From assembly GCA_934148995.1 (NCBI GenBank), contig CAKPDM010000002.1, positions 63,487-127,486 of the forward strand: DNA of 64,000 bases, read 5' to 3'. The notes under the pieces are model-generated. The model was not told the DNA's origin. It did no database searches and was given only the letters and a program-made list of their open reading frames with translations. Positions 2,123-62,636 of the stretch are shown piece after piece; the stretch's first letter is position 1; the number at the start of each line of letters is the position of its first letter. The translations under genes were made by a program, and so were the position numbers. This DNA comes from an uncultured Bacilli bacterium. GTDB taxonomy: Bacteria; Bacillota_I; Bacilli_A; RF39; UBA660.

Positions 2123-4480
2123 TTAAAATAATACTTCAATTTCTTTATCAATATCATGCCAAGTAAAGTTTCTAACTTCTTTCATGTCTTCGCCGTATTC
2201 TCTAATGTAGTTATTATGTTTAATTAACATATCTTTGCACCATTCGTATAATGGAGTAGCTCTATTACCTAGTTGGGGTAAGTATTTTAAAGCATCCATT
2301 ACTAAATGATATCTATCTATTTTGTTTTGAACGCGCATATCGAATGGAGTAGTAATAGTTCCTTCTTCGATATAGCCGTGAACATGAAGATTGTCATTTT
2401 CTCTTTTATAAGTTAATTGATGAATTAAAGATGGGTATCCATGGAAAGCAAAGATAATAGGTTTATCTTTGGTAAATAACATATTGTAATCTTGATTAGT
2501 TAATCCATGTGGATGTTCTAAATTAGATTGAAGTTTCATTAAATCAACTACATTTACACAGCGGATTTTAATTTCTGGGAAGAATTGATGTAGAATAGAA
2601 ATCGCTGCTAAAGTTTCAAGAGTTGGTGTATCACCACAACAAGCCATTACAATATCAGGACTGGCGCCTTTATCATTACTGGCCCAAGTAAATATTCCAA
2701 TACCTTTACTACAGTGATTTATAGCTTCATCCATATTTAACCACTGGATACTTGGATGTTTAGAAGCAACAATAACATTTATATAATTTTTACTCTTAAT
2801 ACAATGGTTGCAAGTAGAAAGTAAACAGTTAGCATCTGGAGGTAAATAAATTCTAGCAATATCAGCTTTTTTTGTAGCAATATGATTCAAAAAACCAGGG
2901 TCTTGATGTGTATAACCGTTATGGTCTTGTTGCCAAATATGAGAAGCTAATAAATAGTTAAGAGATGATATATTTCTACGCCAATCAAGTTGTTTACAGA
3001 CTTTTAACCATTTGGCATGTTGACTAGTCATCGAATCAACGATTCTAACGAAGGCTTCATAAGTATCAAAAATTCCATGTCTTCCAGTTAAAATGTAACC
3101 TTCTAGCATTCCTTCGCAGACATGCTCTGATAAGAAGGAATCAATTACTTGACCATTATGATTTAAATATTCATCATTTGCTAATATTTTAGCATTAAAT
3201 TGGCGATTAGTAGTTTCAAATACAGCATTTAAACGATTAGATAAAGCTTCATCAGGACCAAATATTCTAAAGTTTTTATTCTTTTTAATAACATCTTCTA
3301 AGAAATAACCTAAGACCTTTGTATCTTGTTCTTTTACTTCACCATGATTTTTGATGTCAACTTTATAATTTCTGAAATCAGGTAAGTTTAGTTCTTTTAA
3401 TAAAAGACCTCCATTGGCATATGGGTTAGCCCCCATTCTTCTATTACCTTTAGGCGCCATTTCCTTTAATTCATCTTTAATAGAACCATCTTCATTAAAA
3501 ATTTCTTCCGGTTTATAACTTTTTAGCCAGTTTTCTAGGATATCAATGTGTTCCATATGATCTTGATCTATTGGAACTGGTACTTGGTGAGCTCTAAATG
3601 TTCCTTCAATTTGTGCACCTTGAAACATTTTAGGACCAGTCCAACCTTTAGGAGTTTTTAGAATAATCATTGGCCATTTTTGATTGTCTGTTGATTTTTC
3701 ATTTTTAATTTTTTTAATCTTCCTAATAGTTTTATCTAAAGCTTTAGCCATTTCATCATGAAGTACCATTGAATCGTTTCCTTCAATATAAATTGGGTCG
3801 TATCCATAACCATCAAAGAGATTAAATAACTCATCTTTTGGAATTCTATCAAGAATAGTAGGATTAGCTATTTTATAACCATTTAAATTTAAAATTGGCA
3901 AAACTACTCCATCAGTTTCGGGATTAATAAGTTTATTACAATGCCAAGAAGTAGCCAAAGGACCAGTTTCAGCTTCGCCGTCACCAACAACGACAGCAGC
4001 AATTAAATCAGGATTATCTAAAACTGCTCCAAAGGCATGAGCAAGACTGTAACCTAATTCACCACCTTCATTGATGGATCCAGGTGTTTCTGGGGCAACG
4101 TGTGAAGAAATTCCTCCGGGGAAACTAAATTGTTTAAATAATCTTTTTAAACCTTCTTCATCTTGAGAAATATTAGGATATATTTCAGAATAAGTTCCTT
4201 CTAAATATACATTAGAAACAATAGCATTACCACCATGACCTGGTCCTGAGATATAAATCATATTTAAATCGTATTTTTTGATAATTCTATTTAAATGTGT
4301 ATAAATAAAATTTTGAGTTGGCACTGTGCCCCAATGACCAACTACTTTCTTTTTTAAGTCATTTTTTTCAAGTGGTCTTTTTAGTAGAGGATTGTTCTTT
4401 AAATAAAGTTGTCCAACTGATAAATAATTTGCTGCATTAAAATATCTATTTATTAAATCTTTTTCTCTTTCTGTAAGCAT
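2123..4480 (-). CDS. xfp: xylulose-5-phosphate/fructose-6-phosphate phosphoketolase
   Basis: 785 aa. Contains [41 protein letters not shown] and [17 protein letters not shown], the TPP-dependent phosphoketolase signatures. Length is typical for the family. Confidence 0.93.
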
Positions 4481-4603: not shown

Positions 4604-7600
4604 GTGAAAGTATTTATTTTAGATGATTATAAAGTTAATTCTTATAAATTACCACATAAAGTAGAAGATTCTTATTTGATTAATTATACTTATAATAATG
4701 AAGAAAAAAATATTAGCGTCCAATCTGTCAATGGAATCTGGTACATACAAAGTAATGAAAGTATTTCTATCATAGATAATGGTCGAACTGTAGATTCATG
4801 TCAATTAACAAACTATAAAATTGTAAGACTGTTATTTACTGATTCAGATTCTAGTGTGATCTTAGTTTGTGTTCCTTCAACCATTACTAATAAAAAAGAC
4901 TATTCACTAACAAATATTAAAGACTTAAAGATTGGTTCAAGCCAAAATAATAACATAATTTTTCCAATTCTTGATCCTGAACATATGGTGATTACAAAAG
5001 AGAATAATATATGGCAACTAACTGTTAAAAATAATAATATACCGATTTATGTAAATAAAAAAAGAGTAGCAACAACTAATTTAGTGTTTGGTGATGAAAT
5101 ATTTATTCTTGGTTTAAAGATAATTTGGCTTAATAGTTGTATTAGAATTAATGATATTGACAACTTAGTAATGATTAATGGACTTGGACAAACAACTTTA
5201 CATAATGAAGATAATAGTAGTTATACAAAAGTAACAATGAGAGAAAAAAAGATAAACTTATATAAAGAAAATGAGTATTTTTTTCATACCCCAAACCTAA
5301 AACCAGTAATAGAAGAAGTTATTATTGAAATAGAAAATCCTCCTCTTAAAGACAAAGATATGCAATTGCCATTATTCTTAAGCATAGGAGCTTCTGCCGT
5401 ATTTTCTATTTCATCATTAGCTACTTGTCTTTTTTCATATATAAGTATTGTGCAAGGAAAAAGTACTTGGGATGAAGAAGCAATGAACTTTATAATTGGT
5501 ATTTCTTTACTAATTGGTAGTTTACTATTTCCAATATTGACTCACTATTATGAGAAAAACGCTAATAGAAAAAGAGAAGTTAAACGTCAAAAAAAATACA
5601 GTCAATATCTTGAAGAAAAGAAGAAACTAATTGAAACAACCATTAATAATCAAAAAACGATATTAAAAGAATTATATTTAGGAGCAGAAGAATGTCAAAG
5701 AATATTAGAGACTAAGAATTCTAATTTATGGAGTAGAGAGATAAATGATAAAGATTTTTTGATGGTAAGACTTGGTATTGGTAAAAAGAAAGCAAATATA
5801 GTTATAGATGCACCCAAAAAACAATTTTCAATAGATGATGACAATTTGAAAGATCAAGCAAGTGAAATTATTAACTCTGATTTATCTATGACTGATGTAC
5901 CAATAACCGTTTCTTTGGTAGAATATCCAATTTTTCCAATAATACTAAATACTAATAAAAGAAAAGCTTGTGTAGAAGCTATTATGTTACAGTTAATGAC
6001 CTATTATAGTAGTTCTGACTTAAAGCTTGTTTTCTTAGTAAGTGAAAAAAATAGTGAGATTTGGAATCAATTTAAATATTTATCCCATTGTCTTGATGAA
6101 CAAGGAAAGACTAGATTGTTTGCTTATAATGAAGAAGAAGCAAAAGCTATATCTTACTATCTAGAATCAAAATATCAGGAGAGATTAAACTTTATTAAAG
6201 ATATTCCTAGTAATTCTGATATAGATAAAGTTGATAATAAAAAAGATTTTTATCAGATGTTTCCTAATTATTACTTAATAATTACTGATAACATCTTAAA
6301 ATATCGAAACTTAGAAATAATAGAGGAAATATTTAAATCAAATTCTAATTACGGATTTTCTGTTTTAATTTTTGAAAATGCAATGAGAAATTTACCAAGT
6401 AAATGTAATTATTTTAGTAATATCTCTGATAACGAAGCTGGCTTATTTAGTAAAGATGTAAGTAGTAATAGTTTATCTGTATTTTCACCAGAGTTTTTTT
6501 TAGGCGATATGAAACCATATATTAATATTGTTTCTAATATTCCTACTGAAAACTGTGATGAAACTGCAAGTTTACCGCAAACTTTAGAATTTTTAGAAAT
6601 GTATAAAGTTGGCAAAATAGAACAGTTAAATATTGCCACTAAGTGGCAAGAAAATGACCCAACATTATCATTAACAGCCCCAGTTGGTGTCCATTCAAAT
6701 GGAAATTTATTTGAACTTAATTTACATGAAAAAGAACATGGACCACATGGTTTAATAGCTGGTTCAACTGGTAGTGGTAAAAGTGAATTTATTATAACTT
6801 ATATCCTTTCTATGTGTATAAACTATAGTCCAAAAGAAGTCCAATTTGTCTTAATAGACTATAAAGGTGGCGGACTCGCTGGCGCTTTTGAAAATCGTGA
6901 GAAAGGTTTAAGAGTACCTCATATAGTTGGAACAATAACTAACTTAGATACTTCAGAAATGAATAGAACACTAGTATCTATTAGAAGTGAACTAAAAAGA
7001 AGACAAAGAATTTTCAATGAAGCTCGAGACATGCTTGGAGAAAGTACAATTGATATTTATAAATATCAAAAATATTATCGAGAAGGTCAAGTGAAAGAAC
7101 CTATTGCCCATTTATTTATTATATCTGATGAGTTTGCCGAACTAAAGAGTCAACAACCAGACTTTATGGACGAGCTTGTTTCAACTGCTCGTATTGGTCG
7201 TTCACTTGGCGTTCATTTAATATTAGCAACACAAAAGCCAAGCGGTGTAGTTGATGATCAAATTTGGTCAAATGCTAGATTTAAAGTCTGCTTGAAGGTT
7301 CAATCAGAAGCTGATAGTCAAGAAATGTTACGAAGATCAGAAGCTGCTACTATTAAAGAAACAGGTAGATTTTATTTACAAGTTGGTTATAATGAAATAT
7401 TTGAAATAGGTCAATCTGCTTGGAGCGGTGCTAAATATATACCATCAGATGTTGTGGAGAAAAAAATAGATGATTCTATAAACTTTATTAATAACAATGG
7501 AACAGTTATAAAGAGTATTAATAATACAATAAGAAAAGATGAACAAAAAGATTATGGTGAACAATTAACTAATATAGTAAAATATTTGATTAATATGGCG

Positions 7601-9184
7601 CTTAAAGAAAATATTTCTACTAATCAATTATGGTTGCCATCTATACCTAATGAGATATATTTGGGTAATATTGTCAATAAGTATAATTTTAAGGCTTCTA
7701 GTTATGATTATAAAGTAATAGTTGGAGAATATGATGATCCAGAAAACCAGGAACAAGGTCTTTTAACATTAGATGTAGCAAATAGTGGTAATATTCTAAT
7801 ATATGGTATAACTGGAAGTGGTAAAGAAAACCAACTAGCTACCATGCTTTATTCACTCTGTATTTATCATTCTCCCGAAGAAGTTAATATCTATGTAATG
7901 GATTTTGGTGCTGAGGTATTGAAAGTATTCAATAGAATGCCACAAGTCGGTGATTATGCTTCTTCTTATGATAATGAAAAGGTAGAGAACCTTTTACAGA
8001 TGCTTGAAAGAGAATTAAATAAAAGAAGGACAATTTTGTCTGACTATGGTGGTAGTTTTATTGCTTATAATAATAAAGATACAGATAAACTTCCATTAAT
8101 ATTTATTGTCATCAATGGTTATGAATCTTTTCTTGAAACGTATGCTGGCCTTGAAGATGAATTTAACAAATTATTTAGAGAAGGAAATAAATATGGAATA
8201 ATTTTTGCAGTAACTGCTTCTGCAACTAATGCAATGGCCACTAGAGTATCGCAAAACTTTACCACAATTTATGCTCTAAGATTTAATGATGATTTTGAAT
8301 TTAGATATATTCTAAATGCACCAGTGAATTTTGTGCCTAAGAAAGTCTTTGGTAGAGGTTTAACTAATTTTAAAGAGAAAGTTGTTGAATACCAAACTGC
8401 TTATATAAATTTATTTGACATGATAAATGACACTGTTAAAGAAAGTGCAGCTAGGTTAGCCTCTTATTATAATATTAAAGTAAAATCAATTCCTACTATT
8501 CCTAGTAAAGTCAATGCTGAAACAATGGCAAAATATATAGAAAATTTAACAAATCTACCGGTTGGTGTTAACTTTGAAGATGCAACTATTTCCACTTTTG
8601 ATTTCAAGAAAAATAAAATAACCCCAATAGTGGGAAATGATTTATTAATTAATACAGGTTTCTTAAATGAACTTTATAAAGAGTTTGTTCGGTTACCAAA
8701 TACAATAGTATTGATGCTTGATCTTTTATACACTGTGTCTATACCGAGTGAGGTTACTTTCACTAGTGATCTGGTAGAATTTGTTACAACAATTAAAGAA
8801 ATCTTAAATAAAGAGGATCAGCCCGTGGATGACAGGGTAATAATAATAGCTGGTCTATCGAAAGTTTTTAATGATTCTAATATTGAAGAACAAATAAAAA
8901 AGGATTTATCTAATATTTTAAAAGAAGCGGATAGATTTACAACAACTAGTTTTATCATTATTGAAGAGTATCAAAAATATCGTAATTTAATGGTAGAAGA
9001 ATGGTATCAGGACAGAGTGTCTTCAGCAAACGGAATATGGATTGGTGAAGGTTTTGAAAATCAAATAGCATTTCAGATAGATTCTGTAGGAGATATAAAT
9101 ATGCAAGAATACTCAACGGATGTTGGTTATGTTATTAGGAATGGTAAATTTGAAGTTATTAAAACAATTAGTGGAGATGAATAA
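4604..9184 (+). CDS. essC: type VIIb secretion FtsK/SpoIIIE-family ATPase EssC (YukB-like)
   Basis: 1526 aa with a GTG start. Two N-terminal FHA-like segments are followed by two TM helices (LPLFLSIGASAVFSISSLATCLF and FIIGISLLIGSLLFPIL). Three ATPase modules follow. D1 has Walker A GSTGSGKSEF and Walker B LFIISDEFAEL plus LILATQKPSGVVDDQIWSN. D2 has GITGSGKENQ. D3 has no P-loop. Confidence 0.92.
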   Translation: MKVFILDDYKVNSYKLPHKVEDSYLINYTYNNEEKNISVQSVNGIWYIQSNESISIIDNGRTVDSCQLTNYKIVRLLFTDSDSSVILVCVPSTITNKKDYSLTNIKDLKIGSSQNNNIIFPILDPEHMVITKENNIWQLTVKNNNIPIYVNKKRVATTNLVFGDEIFILGLKIIWLNSCIRINDIDNLVMINGLGQTTLHNEDNSSYTKVTMREKKINLYKENEYFFHTPNLKPVIEEVIIEIENPPLKDKDMQLPLFLSIGASAVFSISSLATCLFSYISIVQGKSTWDEEAMNFIIGISLLIGSLLFPILTHYYEKNANRKREVKRQKKYSQYLEEKKKLIETTINNQKTILKELYLGAEECQRILETKNSNLWSREINDKDFLMVRLGIGKKKANIVIDAPKKQFSIDDDNLKDQASEIINSDLSMTDVPITVSLVEYPIFPIILNTNKRKACVEAIMLQLMTYYSSSDLKLVFLVSEKNSEIWNQFKYLSHCLDEQGKTRLFAYNEEEAKAISYYLESKYQERLNFIKDIPSNSDIDKVDNKKDFYQMFPNYYLIITDNILKYRNLEIIEEIFKSNSNYGFSVLIFENAMRNLPSKCNYFSNISDNEAGLFSKDVSSNSLSVFSPEFFLGDMKPYINIVSNIPTENCDETASLPQTLEFLEMYKVGKIEQLNIATKWQENDPTLSLTAPVGVHSNGNLFELNLHEKEHGPHGLIAGSTGSGKSEFIITYILSMCINYSPKEVQFVLIDYKGGGLAGAFENREKGLRVPHIVGTITNLDTSEMNRTLVSIRSELKRRQRIFNEARDMLGESTIDIYKYQKYYREGQVKEPIAHLFIISDEFAELKSQQPDFMDELVSTARIGRSLGVHLILATQKPSGVVDDQIWSNARFKVCLKVQSEADSQEMLRRSEAATIKETGRFYLQVGYNEIFEIGQSAWSGAKYIPSDVVEKKIDDSINFINNNGTVIKSINNTIRKDEQKDYGEQLTNIVKYLINMALKENISTNQLWLPSIPNEIYLGNIVNKYNFKASSYDYKVIVGEYDDPENQEQGLLTLDVANSGNILIYGITGSGKENQLATMLYSLCIYHSPEEVNIYVMDFGAEVLKVFNRMPQVGDYASSYDNEKVENLLQMLERELNKRRTILSDYGGSFIAYNNKDTDKLPLIFIVINGYESFLETYAGLEDEFNKLFREGNKYGIIFAVTASATNAMATRVSQNFTTIYALRFNDDFEFRYILNAPVNFVPKKVFGRGLTNFKEKVVEYQTAYINLFDMINDTVKESAARLASYYNIKVKSIPTIPSKVNAETMAKYIENLTNLPVGVNFEDATISTFDFKKNKITPIVGNDLLINTGFLNELYKEFVRLPNTIVLMLDLLYTVSIPSEVTFTSDLVEFVTTIKEILNKEDQPVDDRVIIIAGLSKVFNDSNIEEQIKKDLSNILKEADRFTTTSFIIIEEYQKYRNLMVEEWYQDRVSSANGIWIGEGFENQIAFQIDSVGDINMQEYSTDVGYVIRNGKFEVIKTISGDE

Positions 9185-9187
9185 TAT

Positions 9188-9445
9188 ATGAAAAACAAAG
9201 TTTTAGTAGATTTAATCGTTCCTGAAATAGATGAAGAATATTCTGTGTATCTACCTATAAATAAGAAAATAGGGAATATTATAATATTACTAAATAAAGC
9301 TATTTCAGAAATGACAAATGGTGATTTTAAATTATCTTCGACTAATTCGTTATATAATAAAGATACATGTGAACAATATAGTTTTGATTCTTTATTATTT
9401 AATACGAATATTAGAAATGGAACTAGGTTGATACTGTTGTCGTAG
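9188..9445 (+). CDS. esaB: YukD/EsaB-like ubiquitin-fold T7SS accessory protein
   Basis: 85 aa, starting 3 nt after the essC stop. The size and beta-grasp-like pattern fit: the N-terminal strand VLVDLIVPEIDEEYSVYLP and a C-terminus NIRNGTRLILLS with no GG. The position directly after essC is also typical. Confidence 0.7.
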   Translation: MKNKVLVDLIVPEIDEEYSVYLPINKKIGNIIILLNKAISEMTNGDFKLSSTNSLYNKDTCEQYSFDSLLFNTNIRNGTRLILLS

Positions 9446-9450
9446 TATTT

Positions 9451-9470
9451 GGAACTTAGTTCCTTTTTTT
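9451..9470 (+). terminator. short hairpin plus T-run after esaB (weak terminator or attenuator)
   Basis: GGAAC-TTA-GTTCC followed by TTTTTTT. Confidence 0.4.
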
Positions 9471-9581
9471 GATGTTAAAATCTGTAAAATTATTTTGTTT
9501 ATCTTGAGAAAACTAGGATAGTGTGACATACTTAATATAGTAGAAGGTAACTTTTACTATGATGGTGAGAGAGGTAAAAAT

Positions 9582-9875
9582 ATGGCTGATGTTTCAGGAA
9601 TTAATAGAGAAGAACTGCTTGTTTTAAGTAAGATGTTTTTGAAGTATCATGACGATATTAAAGATCTTTTTCTAGAGTATAAAAAAACGATTGGCGATAC
9701 TTCTAAATATTATCAAGGTGAAACAGCAGAGGCCTTCAGAAATAAGTTTAATGATTTTAACTTGAATCTAGAGCTTGTTTTAAAAAGTTTTCTTGACTAT
9801 AGTGAAGCATTAACTAAAATAGTTAAAAACTATGACGAATTAACCTTAAACTCATCTATGGGCAAATATCAATAA
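9582..9875 (+). CDS. small helical WXG100-like protein (turn motif YQG), candidate T7SS substrate
   Basis: 97 aa with no TM segment and a good SD (GAGAGAGG). Central YYQGETAEAFRNKF sits where W-x-G is expected. The N-terminal DVSGIN motif is shared with the next two ORFs. Confidence 0.6.
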   Translation: MADVSGINREELLVLSKMFLKYHDDIKDLFLEYKKTIGDTSKYYQGETAEAFRNKFNDFNLNLELVLKSFLDYSEALTKIVKNYDELTLNSSMGKYQ

Positions 9876-9894
9876 GGATGGAGGAGGTGAAACA

Positions 9895-10227
9895 ATGGCA
9901 TTAACTATGAAAAAAGCAGATGTTGCTGTATCTACTTCAGGAATCAATGACTTAGAAAAAGCAATTTTAAAAGAAGTACAAGAGGCTAGTGAAGTATGTT
10001 CAGTTAATAGTAAAGAATATAAGGCTTTAGTTGCAACTCTTAGACAATATTGGAGTGGTGAAGACTGCAATAATTATATTGCTGACTTAAACCAAGCAGT
10101 AAAAGATCTTAATACTTCAGTTAGTTATATTAATACATCTATCAAAGGTGGATTAGAAAAGTATAAAAATGAATTTGCTGCTTTCCAACAAAGTAACTAT
10201 AAACAAGGTACTACTAAAATTAAATAG
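9895..10227 (+). CDS. small helical WXG100-like protein (WSG), candidate T7SS substrate
   Basis: 110 aa with a strong SD (GGAGGAGGTGA). Has a central QYWSGEDCNNY and an N-terminal AVSTSGIN. Confidence 0.65.
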   Translation: MALTMKKADVAVSTSGINDLEKAILKEVQEASEVCSVNSKEYKALVATLRQYWSGEDCNNYIADLNQAVKDLNTSVSYINTSIKGGLEKYKNEFAAFQQSNYKQGTTKIK

Positions 10228-10244
10228 GTAAGGATGGTGATATT

Positions 10245-10559
10245 ATGGCAATTAATATAAGAGGAATTGATGTATCTGGAATAAACAACATGAAAAATGC
10301 TATAGAGTCATATAGAAAAGAATTAGTTAAAAAAGTAAATGATGTTTCCCGTATAGATGAGGGAGTACTTAATCGTGCTATCAAGGGAACATCAGCAAAA
10401 ACTGAATATAACGCTATGGTAAAAAGAACTAATGATAATGCAAAAAAATTAATTAATAAATTGACAGAATTTGAAACAGTTCTTAATAATATGAAAAGTA
10501 AATATACATCTTCTGATCAAGTTTCAGGTAAAACAAGTTTTAGTACAGTTGCTAAGTAA
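10245..10559 (+). CDS. small helical Esx-like protein, paralogue of the two preceding ORFs
   Basis: 104 aa with SD AAGGATGGTGA. The N-terminal IDVSGINNMKNAI matches the neighbours. The turn position reads AIKGTSAKTEY (W lost). Confidence 0.5.
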   Translation: MAINIRGIDVSGINNMKNAIESYRKELVKKVNDVSRIDEGVLNRAIKGTSAKTEYNAMVKRTNDNAKKLINKLTEFETVLNNMKSKYTSSDQVSGKTSFSTVAK

Positions 10560-10561
10560 TC

Positions 10562-10816
10562 ATGTTTGATAATTATAACTTGAGAAAAAATTATGCTATT
10601 TTACGTGAGAAACTTGGTTTTATAAGTAAATCATTAGAAAAAAGTCTAGAAGAAATTGATAATATTAATAAAAAATTTGATAATGCCTATGTTGTAAATA
10701 ATAATAATTATAGAGCTTTATCTAAATTAGAAAATGATATATTAGAACTTGATAATCATATAAATAGAGTTTTACTTGTTGAAGTTGATAATCAACTTAA
10801 ATTAATGAATAAGTAG
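10562..10816 (+). CDS. small helical protein, translationally coupled to the upstream ORF (T7SS partner or chaperone candidate)
   Basis: 84 aa. The ATG is 2 nt after the preceding stop and there is no SD. Heptad-like, charged and Asn-rich, with no TM segment. Confidence 0.45.
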   Translation: MFDNYNLRKNYAILREKLGFISKSLEKSLEEIDNINKKFDNAYVVNNNNYRALSKLENDILELDNHINRVLLVEVDNQLKLMNK

Positions 10817-10829
10817 AGGGAAGATAAAA

Positions 10830-11108
10830 ATGAGTTTGATTCAAACTGATATTACTAAAATGAAAGAAGATGGAAAGTTATTGTTTATACTTGCAAATAG
10901 GTATAATCAATATATAAATCAATTAAAAAAAATAACTGTTAAAGATGACTATTGGAAAGGTATAGATGCTGATAATTTTAGAAAAGATCTAATTTCTAGT
11001 TGTGAAGTTTATGACGAAGTGGGTTCGATTTTAAAAGAATATGCTATGTTTTTAGAGACTAATGCAAAGGAGATAGAACGGATCACACAGAAAGACTTTA
11101 TAGAATGA
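10830..11108 (+). CDS. small helical WXG100-like protein (WKG), candidate T7SS substrate
   Basis: 92 aa with SD AGAGGGAAG. Has a central DDYWKGIDADNFRKD. Confidence 0.6.
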   Translation: MSLIQTDITKMKEDGKLLFILANRYNQYINQLKKITVKDDYWKGIDADNFRKDLISSCEVYDEVGSILKEYAMFLETNAKEIERITQKDFIE

Positions 11109-11404
11109 ACAATAAAATAAGAGTAGATACAGAATATCTACAAAGAAATATATTATCATCACTTATAACGACTAATAGTTATCTTGATAAAGCTGTTAAT
11201 ACTAGTAAAGAAATTGTTGTTCCTAATAACTTTATTTATAAAAAAAATTTAGATGAGATTGAATTTTTGCTCGAAAGGTATATCAGTGTTGTTAAAGATT
11301 ATCAAGAACTTGTAGAAAAAAATATTAATGATTTTAACAATTATAGTAATAAAACTCTTATTGATATAAAAGATATAACAGATATTACTATAGAAACGAA
11401 ATAA
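11105..11404 (+). CDS. small helical protein, ATGA-overlapped with the preceding WXG-like ORF
   Basis: 99 aa. The start overlaps the upstream TGA stop (ATGA). No TM segment and no recognisable motif. Confidence 0.45.
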   Translation: MNNKIRVDTEYLQRNILSSLITTNSYLDKAVNTSKEIVVPNNFIYKKNLDEIEFLLERYISVVKDYQELVEKNINDFNNYSNKTLIDIKDITDITIETK

Positions 11405-11427
11405 ATGCTTATTGTGAGCATTTTTTC
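11403..11427 (+). terminator. intrinsic terminator ending the T7SS substrate operon
   Basis: AAATGCT-TATTGTG-AGCATTT followed by a T-run. Confidence 0.6.
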
Positions 11428-11446: not shown

Positions 11447-11475
11447 TTGACAAAGCTATAATCTGATGTTATATT
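11447..11475 (+). promoter_or_regulatory. str operon promoter
   Basis: TTGACA (11447-11452), 17-nt spacer, TATATT (11470-11475). Confidence 0.55.
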
Positions 11476-14660: not shown

Positions 14661-15851
14661 ATGGCAAAACAAAAATTTGATCGTTCAAAACCACATGTTA
14701 ACATTGGTACAATTGGACACGTAGATCATGGTAAAACTACTTTAACTGCAGCTATTACTAAATGTTTACATGATAAGAACCCTGAATGGGCTGATTTTAC
14801 TGATTATGCAAACATTGATAAAGCTCCAGAAGAAAGAGAACGTGGAATTACTATCAATACTTCACACGTTGAATATCAAACTGAAAATCGTCACTATGCA
14901 CACGTTGACTGCCCAGGACATGCTGACTATGTTAAAAACATGATTACTGGTGCTGCTCAAATGGATGGAGCAATCTTAGTTATTGCTGCTACTGATGGTG
15001 CTATGGCTCAAACTCGTGAACATATCTTATTATCACGTCAAGTTGGAGTACCTCGCATGGTTGTATTCTTAAACAAATGTGATATGGTTGATGATCCTGA
15101 GTTAATCGACTTAGTAGAAATGGAAGTTCGTGACTTATTAAATGAATATGGTTACGAAGGAGATGAAACTCCAATCATTAAAGGTTCAGCTCTTAAAGCT
15201 CTTGAAGGTGAACAAAAGTATGTTGATGCTATCTATGAATTAATGGATGCTGTTGATACTTGGATTCCTACTCCTGAAAGAGATAATGACAAACCATTCT
15301 TAATGAGTATTGAAGACGTATTCACAATCACTGGTCGTGGTACAGTTGTTACTGGACGTGTTGAACGTGGACAATTAAAACTTAATGATGAAGTTGAAAT
15401 CGTTGGTATTAAACCAACTCAAAAGACTGTTGTTACAGGAATTGAAATGTTCCGTAAGCAATTAGACTTCGCTGAAGCAGGAGATAATGCTGGTGTATTA
15501 TTACGTGGTATTTCTCGTGAACAAGTTGAACGTGGACAAGTTCTTGCTAAACCAGGAAGTGTTCATCCACATCACCAATTCAAAGCTGAAGTATATGTAC
15601 TAAGCAAAGAAGAAGGTGGACGTCATACACCATTCTTCTCAAATTATCGTCCTCAATTCTATTTCAGAACTACAGACGTAACTGGTGTTATTACATTACC
15701 TGAAGGTGTTGAAATGGTTATGCCAGGGGACAACGTTTCAATGGATGTTGAGTTAATTCACCCAATTGCTATTGAAAAAGGTACTAAGTTCTCTATCCGT
15801 GAAGGTGGACGTACTGTTGGTGCTGGTGTTGTTTCTGAAATCGAAGGATAA
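14661..15851 (+). CDS. tuf: elongation factor Tu
   Basis: 396 aa with [23 protein letters not shown] and NKCD. Confidence 0.98.
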
Positions 15852-15865
15852 TAACAACATAAATA

Positions 15866-15908
15866 AAAACTGTAAAATCAAGCAATTTGATTTTTACAGT
15901 TTTTTTTG
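15866..15908 (+). terminator. intrinsic terminator after tuf
   Basis: CTGTAAAATCAA-GCAA-TTTGATTTTTACAG followed by eight T. Confidence 0.8.
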
Positions 15909-15938
15909 TTATTATTAACTATACTAGGGTGTGATGAT

Positions 15939-16568
15939 ATGAAAAATATTAAACATAAAAAAGAAATATTATTAGTATTATTGGGAGTAATTTTGATATT
16001 AGCTGGTGCGTATCTTACTGCTAAAGCTTCTAATAAGGAAATTGCAAGACCAGTTTCTAAAAAAGAAGAAACTTTAAAAGTTAACGGTCAGGAGATAAAT
16101 TTAAAGTTATATCGTGTTGATAAATCATTCTTTTTGCAGATTCCTGATGATTTTGTAGCAGTAACTGGAGATGCTTTAAATCAAAAATATGGTACTAGTG
16201 CAAGGGCAGAACTTATTTTTGAAAGTAAAGATGATTTAACGCATATTTCTGTTACTAGAGGGAAAGATGATGTAGCAGAGGAATCATTAGCTAGTTATAT
16301 AGAAACCTTTAAAAACAATATGGTTGGTTATACCGATGTTAAATTTGAAACATATCAAAAATATGGAAAAAACTTTGCAAGAATAGTAGCAACGAGTACT
16401 GATGAAGCATCTAAATATTATGATATAAGATATTTTATATTAGATAATAAACTAGTAACAGTAGAATTTTATACAACAATTAATCAAAAAAAAGAATGGG
16501 AAAAAGTTAGTAAAAAAATTCTAGATAGTATTTGTTTTGATGAAGAAGATATTAAAGATAAGAATTAA
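15939..16568 (+). CDS. membrane-anchored hypothetical protein
   Basis: I moved the start to the ATG at 15939 (MKNIKHKKE...). The ORF-track start at 15906 lies inside the tuf terminator T-run. It has one N-terminal TM helix (ILLVLLGVILILAGAYL) and no recognisable motif. Confidence 0.55.
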   Translation: MKNIKHKKEILLVLLGVILILAGAYLTAKASNKEIARPVSKKEETLKVNGQEINLKLYRVDKSFFLQIPDDFVAVTGDALNQKYGTSARAELIFESKDDLTHISVTRGKDDVAEESLASYIETFKNNMVGYTDVKFETYQKYGKNFARIVATSTDEASKYYDIRYFILDNKLVTVEFYTTINQKKEWEKVSKKILDSICFDEEDIKDKN

Positions 16569-40531: not shown

Positions 40532-40614
40532 CTCTATCATTTTTCTTTTTAATGTTATATAATTAAAATGCATAGGGTAGTATTGATGCGTGGTAGTATA
40601 TGGAAGGAGAACTT

Positions 40615-41391
40615 ATGGAAAAAACCAACGTATTAATGATTGATGATAACTTTGAATTGATCAAAATGGTAAAGGAGTATTTTAGTAATAGTGAAACTGT
40701 TGCTATTAATTTAACTGCTAATGACGGAGTTGAAGGCTTAGACATAATTTTGAATAAAGAAGATGAGTATGATGTAATTTTACTTGACTTGATAATGCCT
40801 AATAAAGACGGGTTACAAGTACTAAGAGAACTAAGAGAAAGAAATCTTCATAAAAGTGTAATAGTTTTAACTTCTTTTAATGCACAAAATGTAATAAGAG
40901 AGGCTAGTGAACTTGGAATAAGTTATTTTATTCTAAAACCATTTGAATTAACCGAACTTGAAAAAAGGATAGTTGAATGTGGACATAAAGCAAAATATGA
41001 TGGAAAGGTATTTGATATGCGATATAATAATCTACAAATATCAATTACTAATATTCTTCATGAACTTGGTGTTCCTTCACATATAAAAGGATATCAATAT
41101 ATAAGAGAAGGTATAACAGTTTTGTTTGATCACCCTGACGTAATTGGTGGAATAACTAAGGAATTATATCCAGATATAGCTGCTAAATATGATACAACTG
41201 TATCGAGAGTTGAAAGAGCAATAAGACATGCCATAGAAGTTAGTTGGAATAGAGGAAATTGGCAACTAATGGAGGAGATTTTTGGTCATAGTGTAGATAT
41301 AGATAAGGCAAAACCGACAAATTCAGAATTTATTGTAACGGTAGCAGATAAACTTAGATTAGAATTTCACCAGGACCCAGTTAAGAATTAA
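40615..41391 (+). CDS. spo0A: sporulation master response regulator Spo0A
   Basis: I chose the ATG at 40615 ([12 protein letters not shown]), behind GGAAGGAGAA. The receiver domain has [12 protein letters not shown]. The C-terminal domain has [13 protein letters not shown] and [21 protein letters not shown], the Spo0A-specific signature. Confidence 0.9.
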
Positions 41392-60595: not shown

Positions 60596-60624
60596 AATAT
60601 AGACCAGTGTGTCTATATTTTTTG
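60594..60624. terminator. bidirectional terminator (its stem contains the stop codon of the sortase gene)
   Basis: ATATAGAC (60597-60604)-CAGTGT-GTCTATAT (60611-60618), with an A-run before and a T-run after. Confidence 0.7.
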
Positions 60625-61173
60625 GTTATAAATTACTAATTGTTTAGAACTATCATTCTTACTACAGGTAGTTAGAATTAATTGTTCTTCACTAGATTTT
60701 ATGATTTCAATCTTACCAGTTTTATCTTGTTCTTCTATCTTTTTAACTTTATACACTAATTCTTTATTATTGATAGATAATCTAACTTTATCATTTTCTT
60801 TTAACTCATTAAGTCGATTAAAGTAAGCAAGTTTACCATTACCTGAGTGTGCTGCTAGAATAATTAATGATTCATTATTTAACTCTGAGTTATTTAAAAT
60901 AGTTACGTGTTCTTCAACATTATTTCTTTTATCATTGATATCATAAATATTTTCATGTAGATTAATCTTATCAATTGTTAGGGTTGCTAGAATATTGTCA
61001 TTATTGTTATTTTTTACATCTATTTCGTTACTTATTTGTCTAGCAGTATTTTCTACTCTTTCGATATTTTCAGTTTTAATAACTTTAGATTTAGAAATAT
61101 GTACATTCTTTTGATAAATCATAAAACAAAAAATCACATATGCACTAAGAAGAAGTGTTAATTTCTTCTTCAT
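60613..61173 (-). CDS. small membrane-anchored sortase-family transpeptidase (atypical: no Arg after the catalytic Cys)
   Basis: 186 aa with an N-terminal TM helix. It has LTIDKINLHENIY, the His motif IILAAHSG and the Cys motif QLILTTCS. The tail is SKNDSSKQLVIYNQKI. Its ATG overlaps the adhesin stop (TAATG). Confidence 0.75.
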   Translation of the reverse strand: MKKKLTLLLSAYVIFCFMIYQKNVHISKSKVIKTENIERVENTARQISNEIDVKNNNNDNILATLTIDKINLHENIYDINDKRNNVEEHVTILNNSELNNESLIILAAHSGNGKLAYFNRLNELKENDKVRLSINNKELVYKVKKIEEQDKTGKIEIIKSSEEQLILTTCSKNDSSKQLVIYNQKI

Positions 61174-62636
61174 TAAATAGCACTTCCTAGTAAAGCAATG
61201 GGAATATTAATATAAGTATTTGGAACATCAATGATTATAATTTCTTCTTTCTTAGGTTCCTCATTTTTATAGTCATATATTTTATATTTATAATCTTGTT
61301 TTTCTTTAATAAATACTTCAAAAGGTTCTACTTTACTGTAACCTTCAGTAGTGGTTTTTTGTTTGATAGTATAGTGACCATATGGTAATTCAATACTAGC
61401 TAACCCATTTTCATCTGTTGTGATAGTTTTTACTAGTTCCTTATCTTTATTATAAATTTCAAAAGTGACATCTTTTTCACTTTGCATTAATTGTTTGTCA
61501 CCATAACTTTTTTCAATAAGTATTTTACCTTTAATAACTTCATTTTCTAATACTTTGCTTATAGTAGTATTATTTTCATCAAATGTAATTTCATAGAAGG
61601 TATCATCCTTGATGTAACCAGTTCCAGCTTTAGTTTCTTGTAAATAATAAGTACCAAAATCAATAAATGATTTATCACCTTCACCAATTATTTCTGCTTT
61701 TCCTTCATCATTGAATGTTATATCAGTGACTTTTTCTTTTTTATTATTGTATAGAGTAAAGATAGTTCCTTTTAAATCAGCTTCGCCTTGACCTTTGAAT
61801 TCTTTTGTATCTTTATCAACTTTAGTTAGATTTAATTTTAATTGATAAAAACAGAAAGTAACTGGTACTTCCATCGCTTTACTTGAACCAATGCTTACTA
61901 ATCGCTGTGAGATACCATTTGCATAGTATAAAGCTCTTTCTCTTCCTAAACCATAATTACTATAGAAAATTTGAGTATGGCAGACAGAATGATTTCTTTT
62001 AATAGAAAAAGTATTTTCATTTAAATTACTTTCATTATCTTTGATAGTGGTAAAATTCTTTAATATTCCATTAGTATCAGTTATTGTTATTGTTTTTCCA
62101 ATTAATGAATTATACTTGTTATTAGCAAAACTAGGAGTTTTTTTACTATCACTAATCAATCTTTCAATCTCATTCTTTTCTTCAGTAAAAATGTTAACTC
62201 TGGTACCATTTAAAGTATCAGTGAAATAAAATTCATTATTTTTATCTACTGTTTCCCAAATCATCATTTGTGTTATGGCATACCATTTAGGGTCAGTATG
62301 ATTTTTATAAAGGTATCCGAAGTTAACTAAGTCTGTTACTCTCTGCCAAGTATTACTATCATAACTTACTTGTGATATCATTCCATCATAAGTGTTATTG
62401 TTAGGTTGAAAAACTTTAAAAGGCTCTAAGCAATAGGCGATAGAATTATCTGTTGAACTTTTGTAAAATCTAGCTTTCTGGTAATGTTTCATTTTTGTAC
62501 TTTTATCATATCTCACCATATATATGCCATCAATATACTCTCCTTCATAAAAGGTATTTGTTTTGGCATAAACTTTAGTGGTATTACAGATAAAAAATAC
62601 ACTTGTTAATGTTAAGAATAATAATATTTTTTTCAT
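61173..62636 (-). CDS. secreted surface adhesin or pilin-like protein: N-terminal thioester-type (TED-like) domain plus two SpaA/CnaB-like Ig-fold domains
   Basis: 487 aa with a signal peptide (MKKILLFLTLTSVFFICNTTKVYA). It has AYCLEP (Cys69), GYLY and AITQMMIWE (Gln123). Two repeats are of the type GTIFTLYN...GTYYLQETKAGTGY and VTFEIYNKD...DENGLASIELPYGHYTIKQKTTTEGY. The C-terminus is DVPNTY-INIPIALLGSAI. Confidence 0.7.
   Translation of the reverse strand: MKKILLFLTLTSVFFICNTTKVYAKTNTFYEGEYIDGIYMVRYDKSTKMKHYQKARFYKSSTDNSIAYCLEPFKVFQPNNNTYDGMISQVSYDSNTWQRVTDLVNFGYLYKNHTDPKWYAITQMMIWETVDKNNEFYFTDTLNGTRVNIFTEEKNEIERLISDSKKTPSFANNKYNSLIGKTITITDTNGILKNFTTIKDNESNLNENTFSIKRNHSVCHTQIFYSNYGLGRERALYYANGISQRLVSIGSSKAMEVPVTFCFYQLKLNLTKVDKDTKEFKGQGEADLKGTIFTLYNNKKEKVTDITFNDEGKAEIIGEGDKSFIDFGTYYLQETKAGTGYIKDDTFYEITFDENNTTISKVLENEVIKGKILIEKSYGDKQLMQSEKDVTFEIYNKDKELVKTITTDENGLASIELPYGHYTIKQKTTTEGYSKVEPFEVFIKEKQDYKYKIYDYKNEEPKKEEIIIIDVPNTYINIPIALLGSAI

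Follow-up and report, generated by a model that had tools for sequence, protein, structure and literature searches.

A probable reduced type VII secretion variant in uncultured gut Bacilli, encoding an FHA-bearing EssC, a ubiquitin-like partner and six small helical proteins

[quoted passage not shown] Such a locus occurs in an uncultured human-gut bacterium, of which we analysed a 64-kb stretch of DNA (the window). The original prediction had started from the premise that Firmicute T7SSs comprise an EsaA, EssA and EssB set; this is outdated, as the T7SSc to T7SSj variants all lack these three components (Garrett, Higginson & Palmer 2024, PMC11217815), so that lacking them is in itself no longer unexpected. 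Our analysis of the sequence indicates that the locus is probably an uncatalogued reduced T7SS variant, which would export WXG100-type heterodimers.

The eight open reading frames (essC, an 85-aa ORF and six packed ORFs of 84-110 aa) were all found where they had been predicted, bounded by xfp on one side and the rpsL promoter on the other; none of the seven small ORFs contains a hydrophobic segment, in agreement with the earlier view that they lack transmembrane helices. The six-ORF cassette spans 9582 to 11404, its members encoding, in order, 97, 110, 104, 84, 92 and 99 aa. The features are as follows.

2123-4480, minus strand: xfp, left flank of the locus
4604..9184, plus strand: essC/tsxC, FtsK-family membrane T7SS ATPase, 1526 aa, GTG start (TIGR03928, Pfam FtsK_SpoIIIE)
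4901..5158, plus strand: FHA domain 2 in the EssC N-terminal region, aa ~100-185 (Pfam FHA, family profile)
5366..5533, plus strand: EssC transmembrane helices predicted by hydropathy scan, aa 255-273 and 292-310
6761..7144, plus strand: D1 Walker A GSTGSGKSE (aa 720-728) and Walker B IISDEFAEL (aa 839-847), by sequence reading
7805-7831, plus strand: D2 Walker A GITGSGKEN, by sequence reading
9188..9445, plus strand: tsxB/esaB-like ubiquitin-fold protein, 85 aa (AlphaFold2, Foldseek)
9451..9470, plus strand: terminator-like hairpin GGAAC-TTA-GTTCC with T7 run, between essC-tsxB and the cassette
9504..9532, plus strand: promoter-like site TTGAGA-17-CATACT with TG, 9/12 consensus, no better than chance density
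9582..9875, plus strand: ORF97, closest to canonical EsxA/WXG100, turn motif YQG (jackhmmer, hhalign)
9895..10227, plus strand: ORF110, WXG100 superfamily, WSG at aa 53-55 (jackhmmer, 4e-17)
10245..10559, plus strand: ORF104, putative ORF110 partner, turn motif A-I-K-G, C-terminal YTSSD at aa 87-91 (motif, weak WXG100 matches)
10562..10816, plus strand: ORF84, small helical protein, relatives only at the same cassette position (7 loci)
10830..11108, plus strand: ORF92, WXG100-like, WKG at aa 42-44 (jackhmmer, 1.6e-6)
11105..11404, plus strand: ORF99, predicted helical hairpin, helices 9-36 and 46-89 (AlphaFold2, pLDDT 88.3)
11405..11427, plus strand: weak hairpin ATGCT/AGCAT (5 bp) with T-run, by sequence reading, below the terminator-scan threshold
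11447-11475: promoter-like site TTGACA-17-TATATT, ahead of rpsL
11576 onwards: rpsL, right flank of the locus

The hairpin and T-run expected behind the 85-aa ORF, together with the inversion of the cassette relative to essC in one related locus (L004), mark the cassette as a separate unit. A terminator had also been called after the last ORF; a hairpin and T-run are present there, but they are weak and were not reported by the terminator scan. From 10 kb before the window to 10 kb after it, the Pfam families are all housekeeping, with no T7SS accessory among them. FemAB, MurD, sortase and pilin genes were seen, pointing to a wall-bearing host envelope.

By its profile matches the large protein is a genuine EssC-type T7SS ATPase, as predicted: it exceeds the cut-off of NCBIfam TIGR03928 (925.6 bits against 778.4, over aa 226-1520), matches Pfam FtsK_SpoIIIE at E 6.6e-46, and has Bacillus subtilis YukB as its top solved-structure match (9qks, 414 bits). 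That it might instead profile as FtsK/SpoIIIE proper had been raised from the outset; the FtsK model gives 64 bits against a cut-off of 1566. An N-terminal FHA-like region is followed by two transmembrane helices and the ATPase domains, and the helices and Walker motifs described earlier were recovered. The Walker A motifs of D1 and D2 are intact, the Walker B of D2 carries N in place of D, and a Walker A is missing from D3.

Could this be an ordinary but split T7SSb, in which the window EssC assembles with EssB/YukC, EsaA/YueB and EssA made from genes at other places in the genome? The protein passes the NCBIfam 'T7_EssCb_Firm' equivalog, YukB is its best structural match, and it keeps an FHA-like N-terminus that has lost its phosphothreonine (pThr)-binding residues as in T7SSb. 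However, EssC of Listeria and B. mycoides aligns only over aa ~290-1370 (32-33% identity, 550 bits), leaving the N-terminal part with its FHA region, and the C-terminal part, without any match, whereas EssCs from loci with kinase, PP2C, DUF6382 or ParA-like genes align over the full length (36-38% identity, 950-1000 bits). The closest in sequence come from four loci with T7SSe/f/j-type accessory sets (L052, L058, L071 and L076). Over its full length, the window EssC is on these alignments closer to non-b variants of the T7SSc-j kind than to EssC of Listeria or Bacillus; the original label 'type VIIb' is thus correct only in part, and the locus is no stripped T7SSb in the strict sense.

The missing membrane components tell the same way. 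As first noted, none of EssA, EssB and EsaA is encoded in cis: jackhmmer searches with Listeria and B. mycoides queries gave 0 matches among 5110 ORFs of 92 loci and the whole window, and the synteny comparison proposed for relatives found none of the three across the 64-kb window and the 10 kb on either side of it, nor within 10 kb of essC in any of 79 related genomes (0/79), whereas in the two canonical T7SSb loci compared they are all contiguous. T7SSc, the only subtype with a reported genome-wide check, yielded no further T7SSa/b orthologues (PMC11217815). On the alignments and on the ±10 kb around essC in these loci, we consider a split T7SSb improbable. An LXG toxin with its immunity pair, which had also been described as lacking, is likewise not encoded in cis.

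The N-terminal region of EssC bears on a different alternative. Of the two FHA-like segments originally proposed, the second is supported by the family: Pfam FHA just misses its cut-off with the window EssC alone (19.1 bits against 20.7, E 0.002), but is matched by 61/72 EssC family members, and the family profile of this segment finds, at E ~1e-8, FHA domains of GarA and Rv1747. Sequence conservation extends to the other segment, aa 1-95, a putative FHA-like one. Where pThr-binding FHA domains canonically have R,S,H,N,G,T, the window EssC reads S,D,H,I,P,I at the six positions; the host's clade (clade A, uncultured gut Bacilli related to 'Clostridium sp. CAG:451') keeps a mean of 0.96/6, against 5-6/6 in the kinase-linked L058, L071 and L076. 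This loss argues against kinase control. Residues G111, N151 and D164 are nevertheless invariant, which suggests that the domain still binds some partner.

Such a partner might belong to a non-b system of which this locus is the core, with further components in trans: an unknown membrane scaffold, a Ser/Thr kinase and phosphatase, a DUF6382-FHA protein or an envelope-spanning protein. Besides the conserved FHA fold, sister lineages carry Pkinase, PP2C, DUF6382 and ParA-like genes beside essC, and a wall-bearing envelope might need an EsaA- or TsdI-like conduit. In clade A, however, none of kinase, PP2C, DUF6382, ParA-like or DUF4176 genes lies beside essC; across ~25 loci in differing genomic contexts, the sole genes linked to essC are small helical ones and the Ubl gene; T7SS genes are normally clustered. 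No recurring family was found among 52 membrane-protein neighbours. Taken whole, with its several candidates, a larger machine completed in trans seems possible but rather unlikely, and a reduced variant remains our preferred reading.

The 85-aa ORF begins 3 nt after essC, to which it is probably translationally coupled, and adjoins essC in 73/81 loci. Its predicted ubiquitin fold was borne out by structure prediction rather than by Pfam: the AlphaFold2 model (pLDDT 95.2) has as its best Foldseek PDB match the EccD5 Ubl domain of ESX-5 (7np7_D2, E 1.3e-5, TM 0.77), followed by the EccD1 Ubl domain (4kv2, TM 0.75) and ubiquitins. Pfam YukD matches 6/67 family members, jackhmmer with canonical EsaB queries did not retrieve the ORF, and the protein has no C-terminal Gly-Gly.

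None of the seven small proteins reaches the curated cut-off of any Pfam or NCBIfam model, but ORF97, ORF110, ORF104 and ORF92 can be placed in the WXG100 superfamily because jackhmmer and hhalign reach them when started from EsxA and bona fide WXG100 sequences. ORF97 is reached at 7e-25 from Listeria or B. mycoides EsxA and aligns with a bona fide WXG100 family (hhalign, 96.6%; Pfam WXG100, 21.7 bits against a cut-off of 27.3). WxG is kept in 21/21 members of the ORF110 family and 7/7 of the ORF92 family, and ORF92 also matches NCBIfam ESAT6_2 (E 0.007). C-terminal YxxxD/E is kept in 18/20 members of the ORF104 family; ORF104 itself has weak WXG100 matches (Pfam, E 0.0015; TIGR03930, E 6.7e-5) and aligns with the ORF97 family (hhalign, 94%). 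Relatives of ORF110 and ORF104 are paired in ~20 loci, always adjacent. The start of ORF99 overlaps the stop of ORF92 by 4 nt, and the overlap suggests that these two are probably a second pair.

The six were nonetheless not uniformly Esx-like, as first supposed. An HMM of stand-alone ORF99 members matches aa 9-101 of a 438-aa protein (E 3e-11) and aa 2-75 of a 602-aa protein (E 6e-10), both of locus L041; on these matches ORF99 consists solely of a domain that other family members carry at the N-terminus of larger proteins; this family has 7 clusters only among 1.84 billion representatives. ORF84 has no hhalign match and no detectable family or relatives outside the cassette.

Might so small a gene set be the decaying remnant of a larger T7SS that has lost secretion? 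In favour are the missing accessory genes, the degenerate FHA motif, the changes in D2 and D3 described above, and the fast evolution of ORF84 (dN/dS 0.30, the fastest-evolving cassette member) and ORF99. All eight genes are, however, under purifying selection (dN/dS 0.02-0.30 against CAG:451 orthologues); the 4.6-kb essC ORF is intact at dN/dS 0.095, the D1 motifs are intact, and the architecture is kept among EssCs as divergent as 41-47% identity. We regard decay as very improbable. At least 9 further contigs from gut metagenomes carry the identical locus, and its layout is common to dozens of related gut lineages; the only partners that clade A conserves with essC are the Ubl gene and the WxG/YxxxD-E pair (ORF110/ORF104), joined in some loci by another four small helical genes.

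Among known systems, T7SSb (Ess/Yuk; Staphylococcus, Bacillus, Listeria) shares the FHA-like N-terminus without pThr residues, two transmembrane helices, the NCBIfam EssC equivalog match, a small ubiquitin-like protein and WXG100-type small proteins. Beyond the missing membrane and LXG genes and the unalignable EssC termini, it differs in placing its Ubl gene before essB rather than after essC, and in exporting an EsxA homodimer where the core substrates here look like a WxG and YxxxD/E heterodimer. T7SSg (Acetivibrio, Paenibacillus), the simplest variant described, likewise combines an ATPase and a Ubl protein with two WXG100 proteins that are not identical, but its TsgC lacks FHA domains, and it has a beta-propeller protein, TsgL, and always lies beside Tad pilus genes, neither of which is found here (PMC11217815). 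Features shared with T7SSe, T7SSf and T7SSj are the FHA domains of the ATPase, the Ubl protein and the presence of WXG100 proteins, which form a pair in T7SSe; these systems carry a membrane Ser/Thr kinase, PPM phosphatase, DUF6382-FHA protein, large Ig-like envelope protein and/or AAA+/ParA-like ATPase, none present here in cis, and most keep the pThr-binding motif lost here (PMC11217815). Mycobacterial ESX (T7SSa) resembles the cassette core in its EsxA and EsxB, adjacent ~100-aa helical hairpins with WxG in one and C-terminal YxxxD/E in the other, and the cytoplasmic Ubl domain of its EccD is the nearest fold to our Ubl protein; in contrast, the window lacks EccB, EccD, EccE and MycP, its Ubl is a free protein, its FHA-bearing ATPase is one polypeptide chain, and its host is a monoderm of the Bacillota.

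The reduced system that we propose would comprise two transcription units. In the first, essC would supply the motor in the membrane as well as the channel, and the adjoining gene a Ubl assembly factor that binds EssC. The other, a cassette of six helical-hairpin proteins, would have as its core a heterodimer of ORF110, with WxG at the turn, and ORF104, with C-terminal YxxxD/E, the two jointly presenting a composite signal recognised by the EssC/EccC ATPase domain, while ORF97 would be its EsxA-like member; from motifs and gene order we infer both the pairing and the secretion. We know of no experimental demonstration that an ATPase and a Ubl protein alone make a working T7SS. The T7SSb cryo-EM report (PMC12637312) terms YukB 'the central channel component' and has YukD binding YukB extensively. 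In these gut Bacilli, an EssC hexamer with its Ubl protein may be enough for translocation.

The ORF list reproduced the layout of the original prediction exactly, with a divergent phosphoketolase gene on the left of the locus and rpsL on its right.

Features of the locus and its flanks (window positions)
2123-4480, divergent to the locus: xfp, phosphoketolase gene, left flank
4604-9184: essC, 1526-aa ORF
9188-9445: gene for a ubiquitin-like (Ubl) protein, 85-aa ORF, starting 3 nt past essC
9451-9470: GGAAC/GTTCC hairpin and T7 run
9582-11404: cassette of six tightly packed ORFs of 97, 110, 104, 84, 92 and 99 aa (ORF97 to ORF99)
11405-11427: weak 5-bp hairpin and T-run
11447-11475: strong promoter-like site
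from 11576: rpsL, right flank

The window, part of a 157-kb gut metagenome contig, has a G+C content of ~25-30% throughout, and at least nine further human-gut assemblies contain an unchanged copy of the locus. Among named genomes the nearest is 'Clostridium sp. CAG:451' (EssC identity 82%); the remaining relatives are uncultured gut or rumen MAGs labelled 'Bacilli', 'Tenericutes' or 'Erysipelotrichaceae'. In one other strain of this species, also from a metagenome, an IS insertion separates the cassette from rpsL; the inserted stretch (L081:12289-15337; L-numbers denote loci fetched around essC relatives) encodes ORFs of 67 and 240 aa, an HTH regulator and a DDE_Tnp_1 transposase. Upstream of the locus, a 551-aa protein whose sole Pfam match is a PRK (phosphoribulokinase/uridine kinase) domain is encoded at 424-2079, tail-to-tail with xfp, a pairing kept in the CAG:451 group. 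Downstream, gene order is unusual (11576-33144): the str operon (rpsL-rpsG-fusA-tuf) precedes secE-nusG-rplKAJL-rpoBC, with a FemAB gene, murD, eno and secG between them. Just past tuf, a protein of 220 aa, anchored by its N-terminus and unmatched in Pfam (15906-16568), is conserved in the closest relatives only, and we found no link between it and type VII secretion (T7SS). Farther along lie a Spo0A-type response regulator (Response_reg and Spo0A_C; 40600-41391), in what is a reduced-genome gut bacterium, and a SpaA-type pilin or adhesin (TED and SpaA domains) adjoining its sortase (60613-62636, minus strand), which indicates a wall-anchored surface structure.

The large protein had been read as EssC rather than FtsK, and profile scores bear this out: it exceeds the cut-off of the NCBIfam EssC equivalog TIGR03928 (925.6 bits against 778.4, aa 226-1520) and falls far short of that of the FtsK model NF007615 (64.4 bits against 1566), which together dispose of a DNA translocase proper. 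It has two FtsK_SpoIIIE stretches and multiple ATPase domains, not a single motor; of the domains, D1 has intact Walker A and B motifs, D2 has a Walker A motif and D3 is without one. Two hydrophobic helices (aa 255-273 and 292-310) precede them, and the closest solved structure is B. subtilis YukB. It is thus a membrane-bound multi-P-loop EccC/EssC ATPase of the FtsK/SpoIIIE family, as expected in a T7SS of any subtype; a reading as a conjugation ATPase was dropped on model scores.

We found that the T7SSb membrane components absent from the locus are also absent in cis from its relatives. As canonical T7SSb references we used Listeria monocytogenes NCTC7974 'plasmid 5' (L093) and B. mycoides pBMX_1 (L094), each of which carries esxA-esaA-essA-esaB-essB-essC contiguously. 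With their proteins as jackhmmer seeds and every ORF ≥40 aa from the entire window and from 92 loci as targets (5110 ORFs), EssC and EsxA seeds matched everywhere, while the membrane pseudokinase EssB/YukC, the polytopic envelope protein EsaA/YueB and the small membrane protein EssA each had zero matches in cis, in agreement with the original prediction. Pfam context tables spanning window -10 kb to +10 kb likewise held no YukC match and listed housekeeping genes only, and the 52 membrane-protein neighbours of essC in closer relatives included no recurrent family. Single-TM proteins of 380-670 aa that could have been EssB-like (L013, L019, L021, L042, L049, L050, L071) proved to be housekeeping enzymes or to have no Pfam match, none being YukC. 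A 6-7-TM protein encoded directly beside essC in nine loci (L021:9049-9849, minus strand; L045:14907-15647, plus strand; seven others) was rejected as a T7SS part, being a ZIP zinc transporter; its gene is divergent upstream in some loci and co-directional after the Ubl gene in one, and its proximity to essC may be coincidence or a metal link. In several of these small-genome MAGs, essC occurs at two loci or is duplicated in tandem together with the Ubl gene (L044, L072; pairs L013/L045, L021/L044, L022/L068 and L009/L047), and one essC copy in L044 is split into ORFs of 352 and 1156 aa.

The type VIIb label itself stands only in part: EssC passes TIGR03928 but is not orthologous to T7SSb EssC over its full length, FHA domains included. 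In BLASTP, the Listeria and B. mycoides T7SSb EssCs align over aa ~290-1370 only (32-33% identity, 550 bits), with no N-terminal match even at E 10, whereas EssCs of variant loci align over the full length (36-38% identity, 950-1000 bits); by alignment, the window EssC is nearer to the latter. A classical split T7SSb, its missing parts encoded in trans, is very unlikely, as the FHA region of the window EssC is unrelated to its T7SSb counterpart and linkage to T7SSb parts within 10 kb of essC is missing in all 79 loci compared.

The N-terminal 240 aa of EssC alone had no match in the PDB; since the single sequence retrieved nothing, we built a profile from the N-terminal 250 aa of 72 relatives. 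This matched the canonical FHA domains of GarA, Rv1747 and Ki-67 at E ~1e-8 and the EssC FHA structure from Geobacillus at no better than 1e-3. Of the 72 family members, 61 match Pfam FHA, while the window EssC is just below the cut-off. In the second FHA domain (FHA2), the six canonical phosphothreonine-binding positions separate kinase-linked loci (L058, L071 and L076; R,S,H,N,G,T/I/V) from the clade to which the window belongs, where a mean of 0.96 of the six is kept (S,D,H,I,P,I in the window), a residue pattern that would fit loss of kinase control.

This clade, hereafter clade A, comprises the ~25 loci with which the window groups in a neighbour-joining tree built solely from the 79 loci that we fetched; all have the ORF110/ORF104-type pair and none of the accessories. 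Distant relatives (EssC identity 36-40%) carry Pkinase with or without VWA, PP2C, DUF6382, a ParA/CbiA-like ATPase, DUF4176 and WXG-fused proteins. Seeded from L052, L058, L071 and L076, jackhmmer found the kinase, PPM phosphatase, DUF6382-FHA, AAA+/TadZ-like ATPase and large Ig-like proteins in distant loci only; neither clade A nor window 1-22 kb yielded any of them. For the remainder of the window and 10 kb on either side, the Pfam context tables give housekeeping families alone.

Such gene sets have a precedent in the RefSeq survey of Garrett, Higginson & Palmer 2024, which left out MAG lineages and defined T7SSc-j, all with an ATPase (TsxC) and a WXG100 protein (TsxA), most with a Ubl protein (TsxB) and none with EssA, EssB or EsaA, having instead kinases, phosphatases, FHA proteins and other accessories (PMC11217815). 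Compared by published gene sets, none of the described subtypes matches the window. T7SSg is likewise lean, but its ATPase lacks FHA domains, whereas the window EssC has one, and its TsgL DUF5050 beta-propeller and adjacent Tad pilus genes have no equivalent among the neighbours in the window context tables; T7SSe/f/j have a kinase, PPM phosphatase, DUF6382-FHA, AAA+/TadZ-like ATPase or large Ig-like protein beside tsxC, none of which is beside the window essC. In the literature we found no report of such an arrangement in RF39, RFN20 or Erysipelotrichales, nor of a T7SSk, nor any later publication in which such a system is named. We regard the locus as a new, reduced T7SS variant, not a categorically new system. 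The observation behind the original prediction is confirmed and its interpretation partly supported.

The 85-aa protein had been called ubiquitin-fold-like, which structure prediction upheld. It has no Pfam match, Pfam YukD touches only 6 of its 67 relatives, and a Ubl-family profile found no YukD match among PDB sequences, so fold comparison was used instead. An AlphaFold2 model from 65 homologues (pLDDT 95.2) has a beta-grasp fold whose top Foldseek match in the PDB is the EccD5 Ubl domain of the ESX-5 complex (E 1.3e-5, TM 0.77); the EccD1 Ubl domain also ranks ahead of ubiquitins. Its C-terminus is LILLS, without the Gly-Gly that is likewise lacking in the EsaB/YukD/TsxB proteins expected of any T7SS subtype, and its gene adjoins essC in 73 of 81 loci. 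The EccD-like predicted fold, lack of Gly-Gly and adjacency to essC together identify it as the TsxB/EsaB-type component.

The six cassette ORFs, which contain no hydrophobic segments, are under purifying selection (dN/dS 0.07-0.30 against CAG:451). They had been described as Esx-like, a description that holds at family level through WXG100 links for ORF97, ORF110, ORF104 and ORF92, although no small ORF, the Ubl gene included, scores above curated cut-offs alone in Pfam or NCBIfam scans; at that level, WXG100-family proteins are encoded with the ATPase, as in any T7SS subtype. ORF97 is the member closest to canonical EsxA: jackhmmer seeded with EsxA of Listeria or B. mycoides reaches it at 7e-25, and hhalign matches it (96.6%) to a bona fide family passing Pfam WXG100. 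WxG is invariant in ORF110 relatives (21/21) and present in all seven ORF92 relatives. ORF104, always next to an ORF110 relative, has an A-I/F-K-G turn and, in 18 of 20 relatives, a C-terminal YxxxD/E. In mycobacterial substrates, YxxxD/E was defined as the general signal for T7 secretion, acting with the partner's WxG. ORF84 relatives are found only at the same cassette position.

ORF99, whose reading frame overlaps the ORF92 stop codon, belongs to a tiny family (7 clusters among 1.84 billion representatives) and is predicted to be a two-helix hairpin (pLDDT 88); Foldseek of this model returned nothing significant (E > 0.5), ESAT-6-like proteins ranking top. In the distant T7SS locus L041, the N-terminal ~100 residues of a 438-aa (E 3e-11) and a 602-aa (6e-10) protein are matched by an HMM made solely from stand-alone ORF99 relatives; ORF99 is thus a lone-domain representative of an LXG-like targeting module that in such larger proteins forms the N-terminus. 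The two L041 proteins (14876-16192 and 6959-8767) have the ORF99-like hairpin with a P-x-N-F turn motif and C-terminal regions with no significant Pfam match, and are candidate effectors of a related T7SS variant.

The cassette is a unit of its own: in L004 (EssC identity 60%) all six genes keep their order, but the whole block is turned round with respect to essC. Deeper branches (L013, L014, L017 and L023) again show the six-gene layout; other relatives retain only the ORF110/ORF104-type pair. A locus search with ORF110 alone returned only the four known loci, with no close paralogues in trans seen. In the clade-A loci L014 (17097-19271) and L017 (16880-19160), two further genes come after the cassette, one for a protein of 550-584 aa that has a TM segment at its N-terminus and no Pfam match, the other for a 152-aa TM protein; they may represent an effector and its immunity protein, or a component not yet recognised.

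We tentatively propose, as possible rather than probable, that in this clade of reduced-genome gut Bacilli EssC and the Ubl protein are the entire dedicated translocon; in the leanest relatives (four-gene loci include L008 and L020) the system would consist of essC, the Ubl gene and one gene each for a WxG and a YxxxD/E protein. Non-b partners encoded in trans would be an alternative, in our judgement an unlikely one; the FHA-like N-terminus, kept with invariant residues, and the presence of a wall to cross (FemAB, MurD, sortase, pilin) speak for some unseen partner. In the mechanism that we propose, EssC would hexamerise in the membrane to form a channel, consistent with YukB as the central channel component in the B. 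subtilis T7SSb cryo-EM report (PMC12637312); the Ubl protein would bind EssC and stabilise the assembly, as YukD is described there to do for YukB, and the EccD Ubl domain contacts EccC (PMC11217815). ORF110 and ORF104 would pair as a four-helix heterodimer displaying WxG and YxxxD/E to a C-terminal EssC ATPase domain, export would be driven by ATP hydrolysis at D1, and ORF97 and the ORF92/ORF99 pair may be co-substrates or adaptors.

The minimal working T7SS unit and the roles of the non-ATPase membrane subunits are still unsettled in the field. If the proposal is true, this would be the smallest natural T7SS, an EssC hexamer alone would be the export channel across a Gram-positive membrane, and the small helical proteins would be sole cargo or extracellular effectors; should the missing parts prove to lie in trans, the locus would amount only to a new sub-lineage within a known system. 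A naturally pared-down T7SS (four genes in the leanest relatives, eight here) would offer a compact model in which to reconstitute the system, solve its structure and dissect how signals are recognised. T7SS diversity, with T7SSc-j drawn from RefSeq only, would extend to abundant uncultured human-gut Bacilli, small-genome commensals that invest in WXG100-type export with no obvious toxin attached, which suggests a role other than LXG-toxin warfare, for example in host or membrane interaction.
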